Both the position numbers and the translations under genes were made by a program. Shown here piece by piece: positions 5,056-64,000 of a DNA stretch of 64,000 nt (position 1 is the first letter of the stretch; each line of letters begins with the position of its first letter). The stretch spans positions 8,496,001 through 8,560,000 of the forward strand of contig NC_087250.1 of the NCBI RefSeq assembly GCF_037042905.1, in the 5' to 3' direction. Source of the stretch: Lytechinus pictus. Taxonomy: Eukaryota. Under the pieces are notes generated by a model. That model was not told where the DNA came from. It ran no database searches and saw nothing but the letters and a program-made list of their open reading frames with translations.

Positions 5056-5501
5056 TATACCGCACCGAGGTCCGAGTGCAGTATATCCATTTGGCGAGTC
5101 GAGCACAGAGTTCACTTTTTAGGTCCTCTATGCACAAGAATGTTTTTTTTTTTTTATACAACCCCCCTCCCTCCCCTATGTTACTGAGTTGCCCCAAATG
5201 CTACATTTGATCTAAATTCTATATGATTCCAGACCTCGCACTATCCTGCACTCTGACGTCAGAGTGCAGGATAGTACTTTTGGTATGACGTCAGAGTGCA
5301 GGATAGTGCATTTTGGATGCAATAGTGCAATTTGCTGAATATCATGTGATCCGATTTGGACCAATCAGATTACAGAACATTCTTGGGAATTATATAATTC
5401 AGAATCACTGATCCTTTACCAAACCTTTTGTCCTATTCCACCTCTAATCCCCCTTCCACCATTCTCTCTTTCTCGATCTTGATCTTCTTTCTCTACCCTA
5501 C

Positions 5502-6819: not shown

Positions 6820-7302
6820 ATCACCATCATCATCATCACCATAATCATCATCATCATCACTATCACCACCATCACTATCATCATCACCATCATCATCATC
6901 ACATACTTTATCATCATCATCACCATAATCGTAATCATCACCACCACCATCATCATCATCATCATTACTATCATTACAATCATCATCATCATTATCATCA
7001 TCATCACCATCATCACCATCATCATCATCACCATCATCACCATCATCATCATCATTATCATCATCATCACCATCATCACCATCATCACCACCACCATCAT
7101 CATCATCATCATTACTATCATTACAATCATCATCATCATTATCATCATCATCACCATCATCATCATCACCATCATCACCATCATCATCATCATCATCATT
7201 ATCATCACCACAATCACAACCCCCATGACGATCATCCTCACCATAGCCAACACCAACAACATCAACACAACTAACATTAAGTTTATCATCATCCTCATTC
7301 AT
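6820..7302. repeat. (CAT/CAC)n microsatellite
   Basis: Direct reading; source of the spurious poly-D and poly-M ORFs. Confidence 0.95.
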
Positions 7303-54710: not shown

Positions 54711-55205
54711 TCGTTATTATTTCTATTATATATTATTGTTTTAAAACAAGCTCATTCAGAAATTCAGAAATAACGTGCATGCTGTACGTTCAACAGCTCG
54801 ACACCCCTTCCAAATCACCCTCACACACTCCTCCCTCCCTCACACACACACGCCCACATCATCACACACATCTCCCTATACACACAACCATCACCCACAC
54901 ACAATGAAATAATCACAATTGGTTTAATAGTAAACTGCCCTCAAAACAAAATCGTAGATTTTAAAAGGAGCGTATAGCTCTCAAAATAAAGTCACACTCT
55001 TCGCCCGTGCCCATGATATGACAAAAAATAAAAATGAAATATCCGTTTCTGAAACAGTCGTGAAGAACACTTCTTTCAGAAACGGATTTTGAATTCTCTT
55101 TTCTTGGTCAAATCATGTAATGGGTACTGACAAAGAGTGTGACTCTATCTTCAATTCATACATACATACATAATATATATATATATAATTATATATATAT
55201 ATATA

Positions 55206-55570
55206 TTGTGAAAGAAATGGATGAAGGGAACAATGGTAGGCGTAGCTTAAATCAAGGGTCCCCGGAGCTATCTACCCTTTGGAAAAAAATTGTGATGCCG
55301 AAAAAATGTCTCTGCCGGGAATCGAACCCGGGCTCGCAGCTTTGAACGCCGTTGCCTTAACCATTAGACCACAGAGACGGGTTAGTGGATAGGGCAACCC
55401 CGATCCGATTGACCGTCAGAGAGACGGATTTTTGACACTATACTAATTGTAATTTCCTTTGTCGGGTGTAGGTGGGATTTTGAATTTGATTTTCCAAAGG
55501 GTAGATAGCTCTGGGGAACCTTGATTTAAGCTACGCCTACCATTGTTCTCTTCATCCATTTCTTTCACAA
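55206..55570. mobile_element. MITE with ~80-bp TIRs in a (TA)n tract, carrying a tRNA-like gene
   Basis: 55206-55286 is inversely repeated at 55490-55570. Confidence 0.8.
55308..55378 (-). tRNA. tRNA-like gene or pseudogene with apparent anticodon TCA
   Basis: Manual cloverleaf GTCTCTG-TG-GTCT AATGGTTA AGGC-A-ACGGC GTTCAAA GCTGC-GAGC-CCGGG TTCGATT CCCGG-CAGAGAC followed by ATTTTTT. Confidence 0.55.
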
Positions 55571-57429
55571 AATATTTGAATAAATAAATATATATATATA
55601 TATATGTATACATATATATATAAATTATAAAACCCGTGAATGCAATTGTTGCAAAAAGGAATCTATTATCCCAATTCATTCTTTCTTTTATTATCATAAT
55701 TTTTTTTAGAGGGGGGGGGGGCAAATTAGAATTTTGCAATGGATTTTTCCCAACTACCATACGACTTCCGTGCCATTTCAACCCGAATGGTGGCCCGCCT
55801 TCCTCCCCCCCCCCCCCGTCTTTCACTCATTTGCTTATAAAACCATTATATAGAGAAAAGAGCCAAATACAATGCTTCGTTTTGTTTCAAGTTTGGTTTG
55901 TTTCATTCCATTTCATCTTAACTCAAAAACATGGGAACTCATTACACAGATATGATATGATAATCATAATACAAACGAATAAACAATGTATATAATAATA
56001 GTAACACTAATGGTAAACACTAACTTAGTGTTTAGTGATAAACATATTCATCAATAATTATATATACAATGGAGGTAAAACTACTTGTTGAATATTCTTG
56101 CCTAACATTGCTACCACCAGGGGCGGATCCAGTATTTTCAAAAGGGGGGGGGCACATTTTTCCGATGAAAATTTGACAAGGGGGGGGGGGGTTACCTACC
56201 ACTACCATAATAAATAGATTCAGATTCAGATTCAGATTTATTTCCAACAGAAATAACATGAATATTGATACAAATCATTTTCATACATTATAACAAATAT
56301 TTGCGATACAAATCATTGTCATTATAATCATAGTAAAAAACATCCATGATAATTAATATATAAATATATATACAATCTGTGGAAATAGGAGATTCACTCA
56401 AAAGCAAAGCTTGTATAATGTGAACCTCCCTCAAGGAAGAGAAAAGGGGGGAGAGAGAGAGAAAGAAAGAGGGGGGGGGAGAGAGACGCAATGGTTGCTA
56501 TTTGCCTACGGAGACTTACTGAATAGATTAAAAAGAACAAGATAACCCACAGAACAAGACAAAACTAATAAAGAGTAAAATACCACGAAGAAAAAAAAAA
56601 CAAGAACAAGAACAGGACGACACAAGGAGAAATAAACATAAATAGAAACAGGACGAATTGCGACCGAAATTAGAGAATAAAACAAGATGATAAAGACTAA
56701 TGATAAATGATAAATACTAAGCTACACTGAACATTCGAGGAGTTAGTACCTAATAATAGCAATTCTATTACGTAACATTCGTATAAGTCTTCAGAGGATA
56801 GCATTTCCCAGGTGTTAGGCAGTGAAATTCACACAATGGGATTCAAAGCAATCAAAATTCCACACAGGACCAGTTCTCTATAAAAGGCCCTAACCAATGA
56901 ATAGGAACCATATTTTTCAAGTGTGACGGCAGTGACTACACATCTTTATCTTCATGGTGAGTATTGAGGAGACGTAAGCCTACGGTCTCCTTCAGCCCTG
57001 CTCTCCGTTGGGGAGCAGGCATGGAAAGCCGCCTGGAGTTGAGTAAAAGCGGCAGCTATCATGGCAGTCTCTGATATTTTAAGGCATGCAAGTCATGCTG
57101 ACTTGGGCAGGAGGGCTCCTCCACCCATATTTTTGGTATGTGAGCCATACCTTTCTACATCAGGGGGCTGCCCTACACTGTTTCTTCATTAGGGCGCTGC
57201 CCTATCTTTTCTTCTAGAAATTTCGCTGATTCAGCACACCTTCACATCATTATAATGATTTACTCTGTAAACTCTTTGGTTTATCGAATTAAGCCATATG
57301 CTGATATGACATCGAACCATGTCATTGATTTGGATTGCGAGCCTTACCCTTATTACAGCCTTATTTTGACTTCAATTCATCCGAATAATAAAATTGCTTC
57401 CAACTTTTTCTTACTTGGCATTGCCAAAT

Positions 57430-60030
57430 TTTCTACAATACTCGTTCTAATGTGTGGTTAGTATACCAACCAATAACAGCAACTGTGCTGGACCAAGGGA
57501 TTTAATTTAACCCTTCTTAAAATTGTTGTCGAGTAATTACTACAGTATATACGCCTATATTCCAATCGGATTGTGTACAGAAGAATTCAATACGACACCG
57601 GAGCACCGATAATACTGATGGTCATGGCCAACTGTGTACTGGATTTACTTGTATTAGTTAATACTGCTCTGACAGTCGATTTTGTTTTCACCATCCCAAA
57701 GATGGAGAGTTTCTTACTCTATAGAAGCTACCATTCCTTTGCCATAGATTGGCATGAATCTTTCGCCATATCATAATAATGGGTGACATTCCCGGACATT
57801 ATGAACATGTGTATCTATGTATAAAAATTGTTATGCCTACATTTTGAATTATCCCTCATAGGAATCTTTTACAAGAACCATTTTCGTTTAAACATGTTTA
57901 AAAAGCATCGATTTGGAGTATAAACTGACATCGCTATAACATGGACTGGCACAGGCCTCTCTTTATAACCTAGAGTACATTGTACACAAAAGGCATTTTG
58001 CACAACGCAGGGAATCTTCTTCACTGCTTATAAAACGATGATCGATATGCTCTTGTGTTAAATTTAAAACAAATTAAACAGTTGTACCAAGAGCTTCACA
58101 ACAGCGATATTATCGCTAGATATCTCACAACTCGCGTGGATAATGCATAGACTTACTACTGTGCCATTTTACATATTCGCATAACCCGATTGGTTAGTGG
58201 CAAATTCATAGTCATTTGAATTGCTTTTAAGCTGGGAAAAGCCAAGTTTTGTCACGAAATTCAACTATCATCCATTTGTTGCTTGTAATATGAAGCTTTA
58301 CATTCCTCAAAGGAAAAAAGCATGATAAAAAATGCTTCATTAAATGATTATGGATCTGGAAGGAACTTCATGTTGAAATAAATTTTAATTGCCAAGATGC
58401 AAATCTCATTGTCTGAGGTTTACCAGACAACAATATATAATACACGCAAAATTGTTCCAACTAGTAGTTCATCCGTGCAAGGCGCCTAAATGAATAGCTC
58501 ATTACTATATTCTTATATTAAAAGAGGTATCTAGTACATTTTCACCAGACTTTGTAAATAGGCTACATGCTCAAGCCTGAACATTCTTTTGCTGATAGAC
58601 CTTCCCATTCATTCATGTTGTCCTTGACAACCTACATTGAAGATTTGTCAGACCATGGACCTATATACATGTACATGTATTCTTGTTATCTATTCATTGA
58701 ACAAAGAAGATTTTAATTAAAAAGATTGAACAAGGAAGATTTAAACAGATCGGATTTCTAACTTGACAAAGCACCTAATTATCCTTTCCAACGCAAGCCG
58801 TTGATACTAAGAGTATTCCAAATTCCCGAAGTGTACAACAAGTTGGATTAAGTAACCTTTAAACCTTTCAAAAGTTTAGAATGTATGCAGACATGCATTC
58901 CGACAATTTTGGTATTGGTAAAAACACTGGACAGAGATCCATTGTTTAATCAAAGTTGAAATTTCTTCCACCCTGTACTCATCTTGTACAAGACTATCAA
59001 CCATGAACCATCAACGTTGTGCCATGCAAAATTACACAATATGCTACCAAGAAGACTTAACTATATTTAAAGTAACTTTATATAATACATGGATTCCCAA
59101 GAGAACTTTTCATGAATGTTAACAATCAGTCATCTGATATAAAATATTGTATAAGCCATTATGATCCCTAGAGGATGCTGCTTTGATTTGTACATTTGTA
59201 TCGCTGAAATTGAGTTTTTTCATTACTAACTCCTCGATCACGAGGGAAATACACCAAAAAAAAATATGAAATTGTGTTGATAAATAGTTTGAAAAAAAAA
59301 AAAAAAAAAATGAATAACAATAAAACTGGGATTTCTGGAAGCGAGCTCTCGAGGTCTGTTTTACAGGGGAAAGTTAAAAACCTAACCTGCTTGGTTCTTT
59401 TACTATTTACATCATTCAATCAGACGACTATGTTATGTCATGTATAAAAAAATTGGAGATCGAAGTGTCATCATTTTGGACTTGTATCTCAAATTAATTT
59501 CTGACAATTATCAACATTAAGATTCATTACTTATTGTGCCAGTCAATTATGCTTATACTCAAACCGGATACTCCACAACCTATGATTGATCTCAATCACT
59601 GCTAATATCGTTAGCATGTTTATAGGTGTCGCGATCATGTTTTGTAAGGTATCTGACCTGCTAACTACCAACATAAATGTTTAGGAATCAATTTCTTGCA
59701 CGGCACCTATGCCCTAGAACAATAATTTTTTAAAACAAATTTGTTTTTCACAAACAAATGAATACCAATATCATTAACTATTCAAATTGATACGTATGTT
59801 TGATTAGAAGAATAAACTCCAATTTTGCAAGCTGTGCTGTAAACTACACCCTCGACCACCACTATGCTGATAATCAAGTATTATTGAATCATGGACCTAC
59901 CCATGATTGAATTAAGGCAATTTACTGCCTACAAATCCTTGTTGAACTCCTTGTCTCAATTACAGTATTTGACAGCAATATAACTCTTTATCAATTGTAA
60001 TGATAAAATTCATTAGTCGAACAAAATTTG
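57430..60030 (+). pseudogene. Heavily decayed Penelope-like reverse transcriptase ORF
   Basis: Collinear remnants: LTTYIEDL, KTLDRDP, AKLHNMLP, SDIK/LY, EIVLINS, QSDD, SVIILDLYL, LKPDT, QFLARH, LV(R)TK; many stops and frameshifts. Confidence 0.45.
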
Positions 60031-61469
60031 AAAACATGAAATTTCATTTAATTTAAACCATGGTTATCAAGTTTATAAATCTTTCAGGAAGCTTTTCTTT
60101 TCAGGTATTCTTACATCTAAATTCATTACAGCCTTTTATGGACTTCCAATTCGGGAGAATATCCTTTTACTTGGCACACCAAATTACAAGGAAGTTTGAT
60201 TCAATTTCATTGTACCAAATTGTTGAATGTTAATCTTTTGGGGGCAATCATAAATTATATCTTCTTATTTTGACGTCAATAATTCTGCTCTTCTCTGCTG
60301 ACAGCAATTACGTCCAGCGTGCTCAAACGCTGAATGAACCATCCAAATGTCACTTTCAAGAGTTGTCATGAAAGTTATTTTGTACGATGAGAAAATTATT
60401 TGAACATCACTACTTTGTTCTCTTCAATTATGAATTCTTCTTTGTTGATTGCTTTTTCTAAACTACTCTTCTCAGGTTAAAGGTGCACAAACATGACAAA
60501 GATTACTGTCTAGTATTCACCCATTGGAACCCCCTAAAAATATTTAGTAACCTTGTCTCAGATCAAAAACTGAATTAGTTTTTACATTTTATACCATCTG
60601 ACCATGATGCCTCAGTAATTGTTCCGCGTTTCATCAATAATTAACTACCTCCTTCACCACTAAAACTTTTGATTTGATCATAGAGAAATATCTTGACTTT
60701 TGATATCTGAAGCAAGATATTATTTTCATCCTTATATAGTACGATGAATCTTCCAACATTAGTTATTCTTATCTTAAACGTCGATTATTATATATGGCTC
60801 TTCCAGTGAGGCCATTTTCGCCTCTACTGCTGATGTAGAAAACCTTAAAATGATATAAAAATTATTTGAAAATATTTCACATTTATATCAATGGATTATA
60901 TAGAAGTATGATATGTACTTGATTGATCGGAGATAATTTGCAAGATGAATCGATGAGGAATATTTCACTGATTAATTTCCTCGCCTTCATTGAGAAACAA
61001 TTTATTAATAATTATATAAATATAATCATTGGCTGATTCAGTGTTCCTTAATTACATTTTCATAATGTCAATTCATTCTGAAGTGTTATAAATATTTCTA
61101 GTTTGGCAAGTGGCAACATCGTATGACCACGTTGAGGTAATATGATCTTTATGAGATCATTAGGGGAGATAACTTTCAAATTGTTTGAAATTGACTTCTG
61201 ATATGTGGCTTTGAACATGCTATCCTCTGAAGACTTATACGAATGTTACGTAATAGAATTCGTAAATTATACAAATAGTATGAAGTATAATTAGAATTCT
61301 ATTAGTAATAATGAAGTATAAGTCGAGGAGGATCCCACCCTGCATGACTGCATCAAAACAATTTTATTCCCTCCCGATTATACAGAAGTCAATTTTGAAA
61401 TGCAGAACTTATTTTGTGGGAATATAGCGCCATCTATCTAGAAATAATCTATTCCGAGGCACATTGTTA

Positions 61470-61683
61470 GTATTATTATCCCCGACTTAAGCACGAGCTG
61501 CCTCTTAGCGCTCAGTGCAATCAAGGAGTTGATCCTGTCGGTACCCATTCTCCTCACCTGGGTTGAGTGCAGCACATGGTGGGTATATTTATTGCAGAAG
61601 GAAAACATATCATGCCTGGAATTTGAACCCATGTCCGTCTGATTGAAAGACGAGAGTCGTAACCACTAGACCACGGCGCCCCA
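61470..61683 (-). mobile_element. tRNA-derived SINE nested between the ICR and right ITR
   Basis: A-box TGGTCTAGTGG, B-box GGTTCAAATTCC, CAACCCAGGTG core, (TAA)n tail. Confidence 0.75.
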
Positions 61684-64000
61684 TTCAAACACATACAACA
61701 AATTTGTACAAACCAAATGATTATTTGGTGTGTACATCTTGAAAAATTACTTAAGTGGATTGGAAAGCAATCCTGTTTCTAGTTCTTTACAAGATCTTTG
61801 TGTTTTTGTATGATCTTAGCCGTCTTTGAAAAGATGGTTCCTATTCATTGGTTAGGGCCTTTTATAGAGAACTGGTCCTGTGTGGAATTTTGATTGCTTT
61901 GAATCCCATTGTGTGAATTTCACTGCCTAACACCTGGGAAATGCTATCCTCCTCGACTTATACTTCATTATTACTAATAGAATTCTAATTATACTTCATA
62001 CTATTTGTATAATTTACGAATTCTTGTTACACTTCAGCTCGCGTCAAGTGCATCTGGAAGTTTGAATGCGAAGTTAACGGACACCAGGGCCCTGTCTTAC
62101 TGAGAGTTACGATTGATCCGATTATCCTAAAGTATATGGAAATCCATCAACGTCATAATTTTTTCGTCAGGAAATTTGCACAATGTCCTTTTTATTAACA
62201 AAAAAAAGTACACTGAATTTTCAAGAAAATTATGAATGTACATGAAAATATACGTCATATATAGAAAATATTTTGATCAAACATTTGTTTTAGATGTTGA
62301 TGTTGCTGGCTTTCCATAGTTTTGGTTGATTGGATCAATCGTAACTCTTTGTAAGACGGGTCCAGATATGTTTGAATCACCCAGGTCGAGTCTCAACGGA
62401 GCACAGCTTACCCTAACAGTCATCCTTGAGTACATCTTGGATCCATTTCATAAAACTAGTTATAATAACAAATTTCCATTTGGCAGTCAAAAGCTACTGA
62501 AGGCCTTCAATCTGATTGGCTGATAGTCATATAATATAGGAAATTTGTTTTAACAAGCCTTTATGAAACAGTACTCTTGCTAGTCACCATGATTTACAGG
62601 GAAGTTGTCATGCTCGGGAAATATCCTAGAACGTAAACGTAATAATAACTTAAGCCATGAAGACATTTCAAAAGTATTTACAAGTACATGTATATACAAG
62701 AGATGTAAGACAATTGATACTACAGCAGTTAACATAAATACATCAGGGTCCCTTAGTCCATCGCCTAAATCCACCACTGTTTTTTCTTGTCACTTTCCAC
62801 TTGAGATAGGTCCTATATTCAAAATGTTTTACTCACTCACTTTATTCAGTGTCCAAACTGTACTCTGGGACACGATTAGAAAAGTAAATGTCAAATCAAC
62901 ATTGAAAGGAACTTGGAGGAGTGAAACCTTTTCTAAATGTTGCACTTACCAGCATTGAATGGTTTGAACCAATACTTAAAGGGGTTCTCCAGGGTTAAAA
63001 AAATATGATTTGAACAGATAAAGAAAAAATAAAAACACCGAAAATTTGATCAAAATCGTACAAGAAATAACAAAGTTATGGCATTTTATTTTGGGATTTG
63101 CACTATTCCGACAGTAAGTTCTATAGGCATGTCTTCATCAATATCCAATACGCATACTGATGATCTCATATCCCCACTTTTTATTTTGTATTTAATTATA
63201 TGAAATTAAATTTATTCAATTATTTTCCTCAAGGACAAAAAAAATGGATTGACAACTGATTCAGTGCATTAGATATTCATTGCTACAACTTATTTCATTA
63301 TAAGGGTATCATAATTATCACTCACTTATGCATGAACAATTATGATTTTCTGTAATGATATTAGAAAAAGGAAAGTGGGGATTGACATCATCAGTCCACC
63401 TAATGAAAATTCATGGCGACGTGCGTATAACTGTTTTCACAATATATTGCTAAAATTTAAAATTCAATAACTTCACTATTTGTTATCAGATTTTGATGTA
63501 ATTTTCAGCATTTTGTTTGTGTAAATTTTACTCTATTTGTTTAAATATAAATATTTTCAGCCCGGAGGATCCGGATTCAGCTTTATGCAAAGTTGAATAT
63601 AAAATTCCGAAAATTTTGTCACTCTTCCAGCCTTTTAAATGTTGATTTCATATTTTAGAGTGAAATTAAGTGAAGTCTCTGAAAAAATGCTTAATTCTCA
63701 ATTTTCTCTCTCTTTTCAATACCCAAAGCGTATTAAGACATACGACCATAGAGATATATACTAATTAAGCTGGGCTGATACTTCCTTGTTGATAAAACCT
63801 TCGGCTGATCATCTTTATCCTGAATACATTAATATGTTACAATGAAATAAAATAAAATACCTCAAAATTTGAAAATTAAGAGGGCAACTTAGAAAAGGCT
63901 GTTTAAAAACATGGCATTGGTGTCAGTCTCATATTGTCTGAAAACAGTCTCCTGATGCCCGTGAAGAACTCTTATCGAGGCAAAAGAAGGTTGCTACCCA

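Follow-up and report, generated by a model that had tools for sequence, protein, structure and literature searches.

A probable non-autonomous, non-coding family of DIRS1-like retrotransposons in Lytechinus pictus

The window analysed here is a 64,000-nucleotide stretch of Lytechinus pictus DNA (contig NC_087250.1, positions 8,496,001 to 8,560,000), and our subject is a repeat-bounded element at positions 56761-62024 of this stretch. We consider it highly probable that this element is one copy of a non-autonomous, wholly non-coding family of DIRS1-like (tyrosine-recombinase) retrotransposons, present in about 20 copies, whose proteins are supplied in trans. The cis parts of such elements are retained, namely a left extension (lE), inverted terminal repeats (ITRs) with an inward TATA box, a bipartite internal complementary region (ICR) and a right extension (rE), and they are arranged around 4.3 kb of non-coding DNA unrelated to them, together with a nested short interspersed element (SINE). 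A first-pass annotation, made from the sequence alone, had instead placed an eroded Penelope-like reverse transcriptase (RT) between DIRS-type ends and proposed a new class of retroelement.

Terminal architecture and dispersed copies

The inverted repeats at 56794-56911 and 61834-61951 are identical at 118 of 118 positions, whereas the sequences outside the two arms are mutually unrelated, with only 14 of 33 positions matching, both as the first-pass annotation had described. The identity of the repeats runs on to 128 nt (98%), with 3 mismatches at the inner edge (56912, 56917 and 56918), which gives a left ITR at 56794-56921 on the plus strand and a right ITR, its inverted partner, at 61824-61951 on the minus strand. 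The block at 61217-61333 on the plus strand is the exact reverse complement, over 117 of 117 positions, of 61946-62024 joined to 56767-56804, with one AATTCT hexamer shared, as expected of the complement of a circle junction. This block is the ICR, and it consists of two overlapping halves. Reverse-complemented, the left half (61217-61260) gives lE followed by the initial 11 nt of the ITR, and the right half (61255-61333) gives the final 6 nt of the ITR followed by rE. Two inverted pairs make up the complementarity, one of 44 nt at 100% (56761-56804 versus 61217-61260) and one of 79 nt at 100%. The extensions themselves lie outside the ITRs, lE at 56763-56793 and rE at 61952-62022 (both on the plus strand), and the hexamer AATTCT is present at both 56761-56766 and 62019-62024. 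Such a layout is far beyond chance, because about 20 copies at other places in the genome show it too. The DIRS-type terminal architecture proposed for the element, with exact ITRs and ICR, stands.

To place the element in its genome, the source assembly was searched (G000, eukaryotic, 812 Mb; C-numbers denote its contigs and L-numbers its loci). Only the best candidates were scored, so that the counts from these searches are lower bounds. The 161-nt left end gave at least 41 matches (the best 40 of 92 candidates being scored), mostly as inward-facing pairs about 5.2 kb apart, and the ICR gave at least 20 copies at 98-100% identity. Twenty loci, in 19 places, were compared with the window element, using q coordinates for positions within it. 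Seven places are colinear over q1-5262, seven have internal deletions, three have nested insertions (4.9, 1.7 and 0.7 kb), one is a distant fragment and one an inverted, rearranged pair; identity to the window copy over the 19 places ranges from 98.6% down to about 83%. Two queries taken from pieces of the interior returned copies of the family, a small number of older relatives (67-80%) and, at 59130-59250, a short repeat unrelated to it. The copies have the whole non-coding 5.26 kb in common, and the interior is therefore the unit of a family and not the wreck of one copy. Overall, the window element belongs to a family of about 20 dispersed copies.

It could be argued that the family is immobile and that its copies arose by segmental duplication. 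Two deleted copies on C8, L047 (22950500-22957300) and L040 (24875600-24880800), share the same left flank and have similar right flanks, and they represent a single insertion, of which a segmental duplication later made a second copy about 1.9 Mb away. For the other 16 copies, however, the flanks are unrelated on either side, the ends fall precisely on the same bases and the junctions follow the rule described below, and a contig reading an empty site also exists for the window copy. We give the duplication explanation next to no credence for the family as a whole.

Further loci were observed during these searches. On C1 (26127000-26136500; L050 and L058), two family copies face each other with their right ITRs, joined tail to tail across 11 nt and with no right extension, and their ICRs are oppositely oriented, as in an inverted dimer or a rearrangement. 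L049 on C5 and the 4.9-kb insertion of the C19 copy, which were examined as possible coding relatives, contain low-complexity frames only. Diverged ITR matches on C11, C13 and C16 (L051-L056) yielded no RT or tyrosine recombinase (YR) partner.

Coding content and autonomous relatives

The interior of the window element codes for nothing. The longest stop-to-stop frame between the ends has 105 codons, and the six frames contain 95 to 138 stops per 1754 codons; composition predicts 6.8-7.5%, so that stops occur at the random level. A Pfam scan (E<=1) of the 89 stop-free fragments of at least 30 amino acids found no reverse transcriptase, GIY-YIG or integrase/recombinase domain. Eight weak, sub-threshold Pfam matches, including TAS2R (0.0053), DUF6122 (0.028), BRAP2, UvsY and AAA_7, are not related to mobile elements and were judged to be chance. 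When 58300-59951, where the motifs of the proposed RT lie, was read in three forward frames with X at each stop, no Pfam family was matched at E<=10. The same profile tool scores the real RT of the autonomous relative L057, described below, at E 3.5e-24. An Rfam scan of 55000-64000 (E<=1) found no hammerhead or other ribozyme, its matches being a tRNA and two weak ones, all outside the element; within the element, neither tRNA nor ribozyme was called by ARAGORN and Rfam.

These results bear on the proposed class of retroelement with an eroded Penelope-like RT between DIRS-type ends. In its favour, seven of the eight short strings on which the RT reading was based are present on the plus strand, in the stated order. 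However, the eighth (DIK.LY) was not found, five of the strings lie in one frame and two in another, and 20 stops occur among the 360 codons from LTTYIE to FLAR. Given the stops, the split frames and the lack of any profile match, with neither RVT_1 nor GIY-YIG in the 89 fragments or the three read-through frames, the Penelope-like RT is a chance reading. The eroded ORFs (open reading frames) of the first-pass annotation likewise dissolve into a non-coding unit common to the copies, whereas its report of no GIY-YIG endonuclease or recombinase gene agrees with the Pfam scans. Together with the Ty3/retrovirus-type RT of the related autonomous element and the lack of a hammerhead in the Rfam scan, this leaves the Penelope explanation a vanishingly small probability. 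Its removal clears away a false lead, and illustrates that AT-rich DNA can offer the eye short motifs that pass for an RT.

A genome search with the Pfam Phage_integrase profile gave at least 83 matches, including one within a frame of 952 aa at locus L057 (G000:C6:21255336-21262120). L057 is 86% identical to the window element at the left end, 88% in the ICR and 85% at the right end, and shares nothing else with it. Its ITRs are 100% identical over 87 nt, and its ICR halves exactly complement its own ends and overlap by 2 bp. Its ORFs are of 340 and 952 aa. The latter is intact and matches RVT_1 over residues 96-257 (E 3.5e-24) and Phage_integrase over residues 757-931 (E 1.4e-7). YLDD and HSFR are visible in the ORF sequence, and we take them to be the RT and the recombinase motif, respectively. 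Its best relatives of solved structure are the RT-RNase H of foamy virus, cauliflower mosaic virus, Ty3 and Moloney murine leukaemia virus. Among the 120 homologues listed for L057, PF00589 (Phage_integrase) occurs in 17, the Dam methyltransferase PF05869 in 14, RT_RNaseH PF17917 in 9 and GIY-YIG in none, a domain content that would correspond to the DIRS1-like series of RT, RNase H, methyltransferase and YR. In substance, therefore, the RT associated with these ends groups with DIRS, since L057 has standard DIRS1-like content, and the suggested pairing of a PLE-type (Penelope-like element) RT with DIRS ends gives way to a related autonomous element with a Ty3/retrovirus-type RT-RNase H and a tyrosine recombinase.

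The comparison with L057 also addresses whether the window element is a decayed autonomous DIRS copy, with an interior made of eroded gag, RT-RNase H and YR genes. Its 5.26-kb length is near that of autonomous DIRS1-like elements, L057 measuring about 5.0 kb without a nested insertion. Nevertheless, the three L057 ORFs have no tblastn match in the window element (best E 0.54), and by blastn the DNA common to both is limited to the ends and the ICR. About 20 copies whose ends and ICRs match near-perfectly (0-5 mismatches per 117) carry the same non-coding interior, which was therefore already non-coding at insertion, and diverged sublineages, at 67-90%, keep the same interior as well. Decay of an autonomous copy is thus very improbable. 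With no tyrosine recombinase or RT-RNase H found in the window element, it was filed as a non-autonomous derivative, in agreement with the first-pass annotation on this point.

Ends and ICR are shared at 85-91% with L057 and the C9 element, around an interior unrelated to that of L057 and in about 20 dispersed copies. Ranked by ICR identity to the window element, the elements bearing RT and YR are those of C9 (91%), C10 (90%), C8 (88%), L057 (88%) and C15 (87%). Of these, the L057 lineage would be the best protein donor seen for the window family. Several points weigh against this assignment. Among the scored matches, no autonomous element has ends more than 92% identical to those of the family, and no intact one is closer than 85-91%. 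The ORFs of the C9, C10, C8 and C15 elements carry stops. As to L057, the scored matches include its ORF2 once at 100% and no other copy of high identity, a nested insertion of about 1.8 kb interrupts its right ITR, and no methyltransferase domain was detected in it (a weak PCIF1_WW match in ORF2 has E 0.22). The true helper may be another lineage, or may have been lost.

Several observations on these relatives were made alongside. The nested insertion in L057 (5180-6961 of the locus) is a foldback insertion with its own terminal inverted repeats (5206-5307 versus 6821-6924), and contains a 177-aa frame with no Pfam match. The genome as a whole is rich in tyrosine-recombinase elements, with many intact pairs of RT frames of about 700 aa and YR frames of about 330 aa, members of several DIRS lineages at 33-40% identity to L057 ORF2. 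On C11 (14224096-14237773), six ICR-like matches of 86-87% lie on one strand with a spacing of alternately about 1.96 and 3.83 kb, a pattern suggestive of three DIRS-like units of 5.8 kb in tandem, each with two ICRs.

Junctions, conservation of cis parts and recent insertion

The window copy has AATTCT at both ends, and the first-pass annotation had named a 6-bp crossover core. Junction hexamers were read at the true ends of 18 copies. On the left they are AATTCT in 13 copies, GATTCT in 2, and TATTCT, CATTCT and GTTTCT in 1 each; on the right, AATTAT in 12, AATTGT in 3, AATTCT in 2 and AATTAG in 1. In the ICR, the hexamer is always embedded as ACG-AATTCT-ATTACG. The variation implies that positions 1-2 of the left hexamer and positions 5-6 of the right hexamer come from the target, so that at the left junction (56761-56766, plus strand) the copies share only TT (56763-56764) or ATT, and at the right junction (62019-62024, plus strand) AATT comes from the element. 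Element and target have TT in common in all 18 copies, and ATT in 17. The same hexamer at both ends occurs in the window copy only (1 of 18), where the target was by chance AATTCT and so gives the appearance of a 6-bp core. In the reconstructed targets AATTAT is preferred, and position 6 is T for 17 of the 18 copies. L057 follows the same rule, its junctions reading AG|TTCT and AATT|TT, and the bases flanking the copies are unrelated, that is, there is no target-site duplication (TSD). In passages of PMC3266345, restated in PMC7192593, the ICRs of DIRS1-like elements are described as overlapping on a 3-bp circular junction, with integration by recombination with an identical trinucleotide and no TSD; according to the same source (Piednoel 2011), 23 of 28 annotated DIRS1-like elements start and end with NTT, most often ATT. 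The family junction is this published DIRS1 trinucleotide and not a 6-bp core.

Conservation along the element was compared in 13 aligned copies; the alignment does without the fragment, the rearranged locus, the three copies bearing large insertions and the two with the heaviest deletions. Mean pairwise identity is highest in the ICR, at 99.2%, followed by rE (98.7%), the outer right ITR (98.1%), lE (97.5%) and the left ITR (96.6-97.4%), whereas the interior blocks reach 76.6-88.5%. Within each copy, the ends differ from the copy's own ICR by 0-5 mismatches per 117, of which one is expected wherever the right hexamer differs from AATTCT. By this near-perfect match, L041 and L044 appear young even though their interiors are about 10% off that of the window copy. 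The window family and L057 are unlike each other at 4 of the 42 positions of lE and, in rE, at several positions as well as by indels, and yet each family's ICR exactly matches its own ends; the two parts covary. This conservation profile marks the ICR and the end extensions as selected cis elements. Beyond the family, ICRs are 86-92% identical among DIRS lineages (those of C9, C10, C8, C15 and L057) whose polyproteins are only about 50-56% identical, a strength of conservation unusual in a non-coding cis element.

Conservation of the ICR is also relevant to mobilisation at the DNA level, in a Crypton-like manner, in which a tyrosine recombinase excises and reintegrates the element, or copies it as DNA, without reverse transcription. 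The genome offers at least 83 tyrosine-recombinase matches, many of them in stand-alone ORFs of about 330 aa, and no cDNA intermediate was observed. On the other side, the ICR is the best-conserved part and covaries with the ends between families. This would follow from a rebuilding of the ends on the ICR during retrotransposition, a step described as essential for DIRS-1 in passages of PMC7192593, and speaks against the DNA-level route. Growth to about 20 copies with sublineages, and the existence of sense-strand RNA, point the same way. We consider DNA-level mobilisation improbable, though the most credible of the explanations that compete with a retrotransposed DIRS1-like family.

Evidence of recent movement came from a contig set of the same species (X1), which was compared with 56600-62200. 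One 174-nt contig joins 56755 to 62019, with GC between; given the flank ...CCTAATAATAGC|AATTCT, it consists of the left flank (with a 3-bp indel), a single AATTCT and the right flank. This contig is an empty site in which a single hexamer is kept, and it differs from the assembly also at flank positions. The window insertion is therefore likely to have a presence/absence polymorphism. The perfect match of the ends to their own ICR, together with this contig, agrees with the recent mobilisation in trans that the first-pass annotation had suggested, and the family was inserted recently and is apparently still mobile in the host genome.

RNA was examined by reading about 6% of each of three raw runs (X21, X22 and X23). 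In X21 and X23, reads cover 56787-58843 sparsely, with depth up to 10.8 and the first mate always on the minus strand; assuming the usual stranded libraries, these reads would be sense RNA. A higher RNA depth over the SINE stems from other SINE copies.

Some of these data weigh against a recently active, transcribed element. The empty site is represented by a single 174-nt contig, and the type of the run behind it (RNA or DNA) was guessed; moreover, X1 may be the assembly's own sample, in which case the contig is its other haplotype. The RNA cover is thin, X22 has almost none, and 58844-61274 is uncovered in all runs except for a depth of 1.55 at 60153-60339 in X21. No transcription start is claimed, because the six molecules that end at 56927 have both termini in common and may be copies of a single fragment.

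For the non-autonomous DIRS1-like family, the likeliest mechanism would be the published DIRS-1 cycle, run entirely on proteins from elsewhere. The left ITR contains an inward-pointing TATAAAAG (TATA) box at 56879-56886 on the plus strand, with a mirror copy at 61859-61866 on the minus strand, and TCTCTATAAAAGG, which contains this box, is kept in the ITR of the autonomous L057 despite diverged surroundings. The box at 56879 would act as a promoter, and transcription would proceed from within the left ITR. RT and RNase H from autonomous DIRS1-like elements of the same genome, presumably of the L057 lineage, would copy the RNA into cDNA in trans. The ICR would then serve as the template on which the two ends are rebuilt and joined, and a trans-supplied tyrosine recombinase would recombine ATT at the joined ends with ATT or NTT at the target, preferably within AATTAT, leaving no TSD. 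For Dictyostelium DIRS-1, passages of PMC7192593 report that a step later than first-strand synthesis cannot do without the ICR, and that in a helper/donor assay a donor without GAG, RT and RNase H was mobilised by endogenous proteins. The window family fits both the ICR requirement and the action in trans, which have been shown experimentally only in Dictyostelium.

A more far-reaching possibility, to which we give somewhat less than even chances, is that the family represents a currently active non-coding DIRS1-type lineage in an animal, consisting of sublineages with interiors 10-20% apart and a near-invariant ICR and extensions, and that its mobilisation is due to autonomous elements with ends 9-15% different from its own and with proteins about 50% different from one another. 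If true, nature would here provide a helper/donor system from which the smallest set of cis parts needed for tyrosine-recombinase retrotransposition could be read (lE, outer ITR, ICR and rE), and it would imply a relaxed end specificity of the DIRS machinery.

Accompanying sequences and known systems

Between the ends, 56922-61216 (plus strand) is the AT-rich, family-specific interior, assigned as non-coding from the stop counts, Pfam, tblastn and the family comparison. It includes a short repeat of about 120 nt at 59130-59250 (no strand assigned; q1631-1751), which matches at least 9 unrelated loci at 81-87% and is followed by an A-rich run at 59257-59311; this pair is possibly an old small retroposon carried along. 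A tRNA-like SINE lies nested in antisense between the ICR and the right ITR (61440-61682, minus strand) and is found in every full-length copy. Its sequence has 3044 first-look candidates in the genome, where free copies of about 243 nt are 82-86% identical. Alignments of the family copies are colinear through the SINE, and the segment has no counterpart in L057. A likeness to an A box and a B box was judged by eye; ARAGORN and Rfam called no tRNA in 61440-61682. L054, which is without q4720-4990 (most of the SINE), was considered as a pre-SINE state, but the borders of its gap differ from those of the SINE, and it was not used.

Outside the element, a 48-nt inverted repeat pair at 81% (62088-62135 and 62316-62363) lies directly to the right and looks like a miniature inverted-repeat transposable element. 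The depth of X1 contigs is very high (6086) over 62023-62200. To the left, a 72-nt tRNA gene lies at 55307-55378 on the minus strand, which ARAGORN calls tRNA-SeC with anticodon TCA and Rfam calls tRNA (55.1 bits). We take 72 nt to be too short for a canonical eukaryotic tRNA-Sec, and the gene may be a suppressor-like or SINE-related tRNA copy.

Among known systems, the Penelope-like elements were found to have nothing in common with the window element, which is without a PLE-type RT, GIY-YIG and hammerhead, and whose ends are inverted, not direct. The terminal repeats of Penelope-like elements (pseudo-long terminal repeats, pLTRs) carry hammerhead ribozyme motifs. The DIRS1-like elements, comprising Dictyostelium DIRS-1 and animal families, are by contrast the same in ITRs, lE and rE, two overlapping ICRs near the 3' end, ATT or NTT termini and the lack of a TSD, as far as described in passages of PMC3266345, and the autonomous relative in the host genome has RT, RNase H and YR. 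The difference lies in the contents, as the window element has no ORF at all, contains 4.3 kb of unrelated non-coding sequence and a SINE, and must depend on outside proteins. Every structural feature of the DIRS1-like elements is present in it, and their coding features are all absent.

Within the DIRS order, elements without proteins have been published before. TOC1 of Chlamydomonas reinhardtii is termed an 'active nonautonomous DIRS retrotransposon' in part of the text of 10.1101/2022.06.16.496473, and is likewise a multi-kb, protein-less element with autonomous relatives (TOC3) in the same genome. Its host is a green alga and not an animal. TOC1 is of the split-direct-repeat type, not of the ITR and ICR type. 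SIRE of Trypanosoma cruzi, the partner of VIPER, is already described in print, in the passages concerned, as a protein-less member of the DIRS order. It differs in being about 0.4 kb long and built from the ends of VIPER, with split direct repeats, and there is debate over its mobility, whereas the window element is 5.3 kb long with ITRs and an ICR. In the literature searched, with supplements and Repbase/Dfam lying outside it, we found no explicit description of a non-autonomous family of the ITR and ICR type in animals.

A parallel in logic is offered by large retrotransposon derivatives (LARDs) and terminal-repeat retrotransposons in miniature (TRIMs). In these elements, for example Dasheng with RIRE2, a large non-coding interior lies between conserved cis ends and the element is parasitic on a similar-ended autonomous partner. 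The window family follows the same logic, but LARDs and TRIMs have direct long terminal repeats, a DDE integrase and TSDs, in place of ITRs plus an ICR, a tyrosine recombinase and no TSD. Overall, what is documented here is a protein-less DIRS1-type family with an ATT crossover, a preferred AATTAT target and a likely insertion polymorphism, which offers a natural animal system for the study of tyrosine-recombinase retrotransposition. It is a new family within the already known DIRS1-type retrotransposons, neither a new class nor a chimera of PLE and DIRS.

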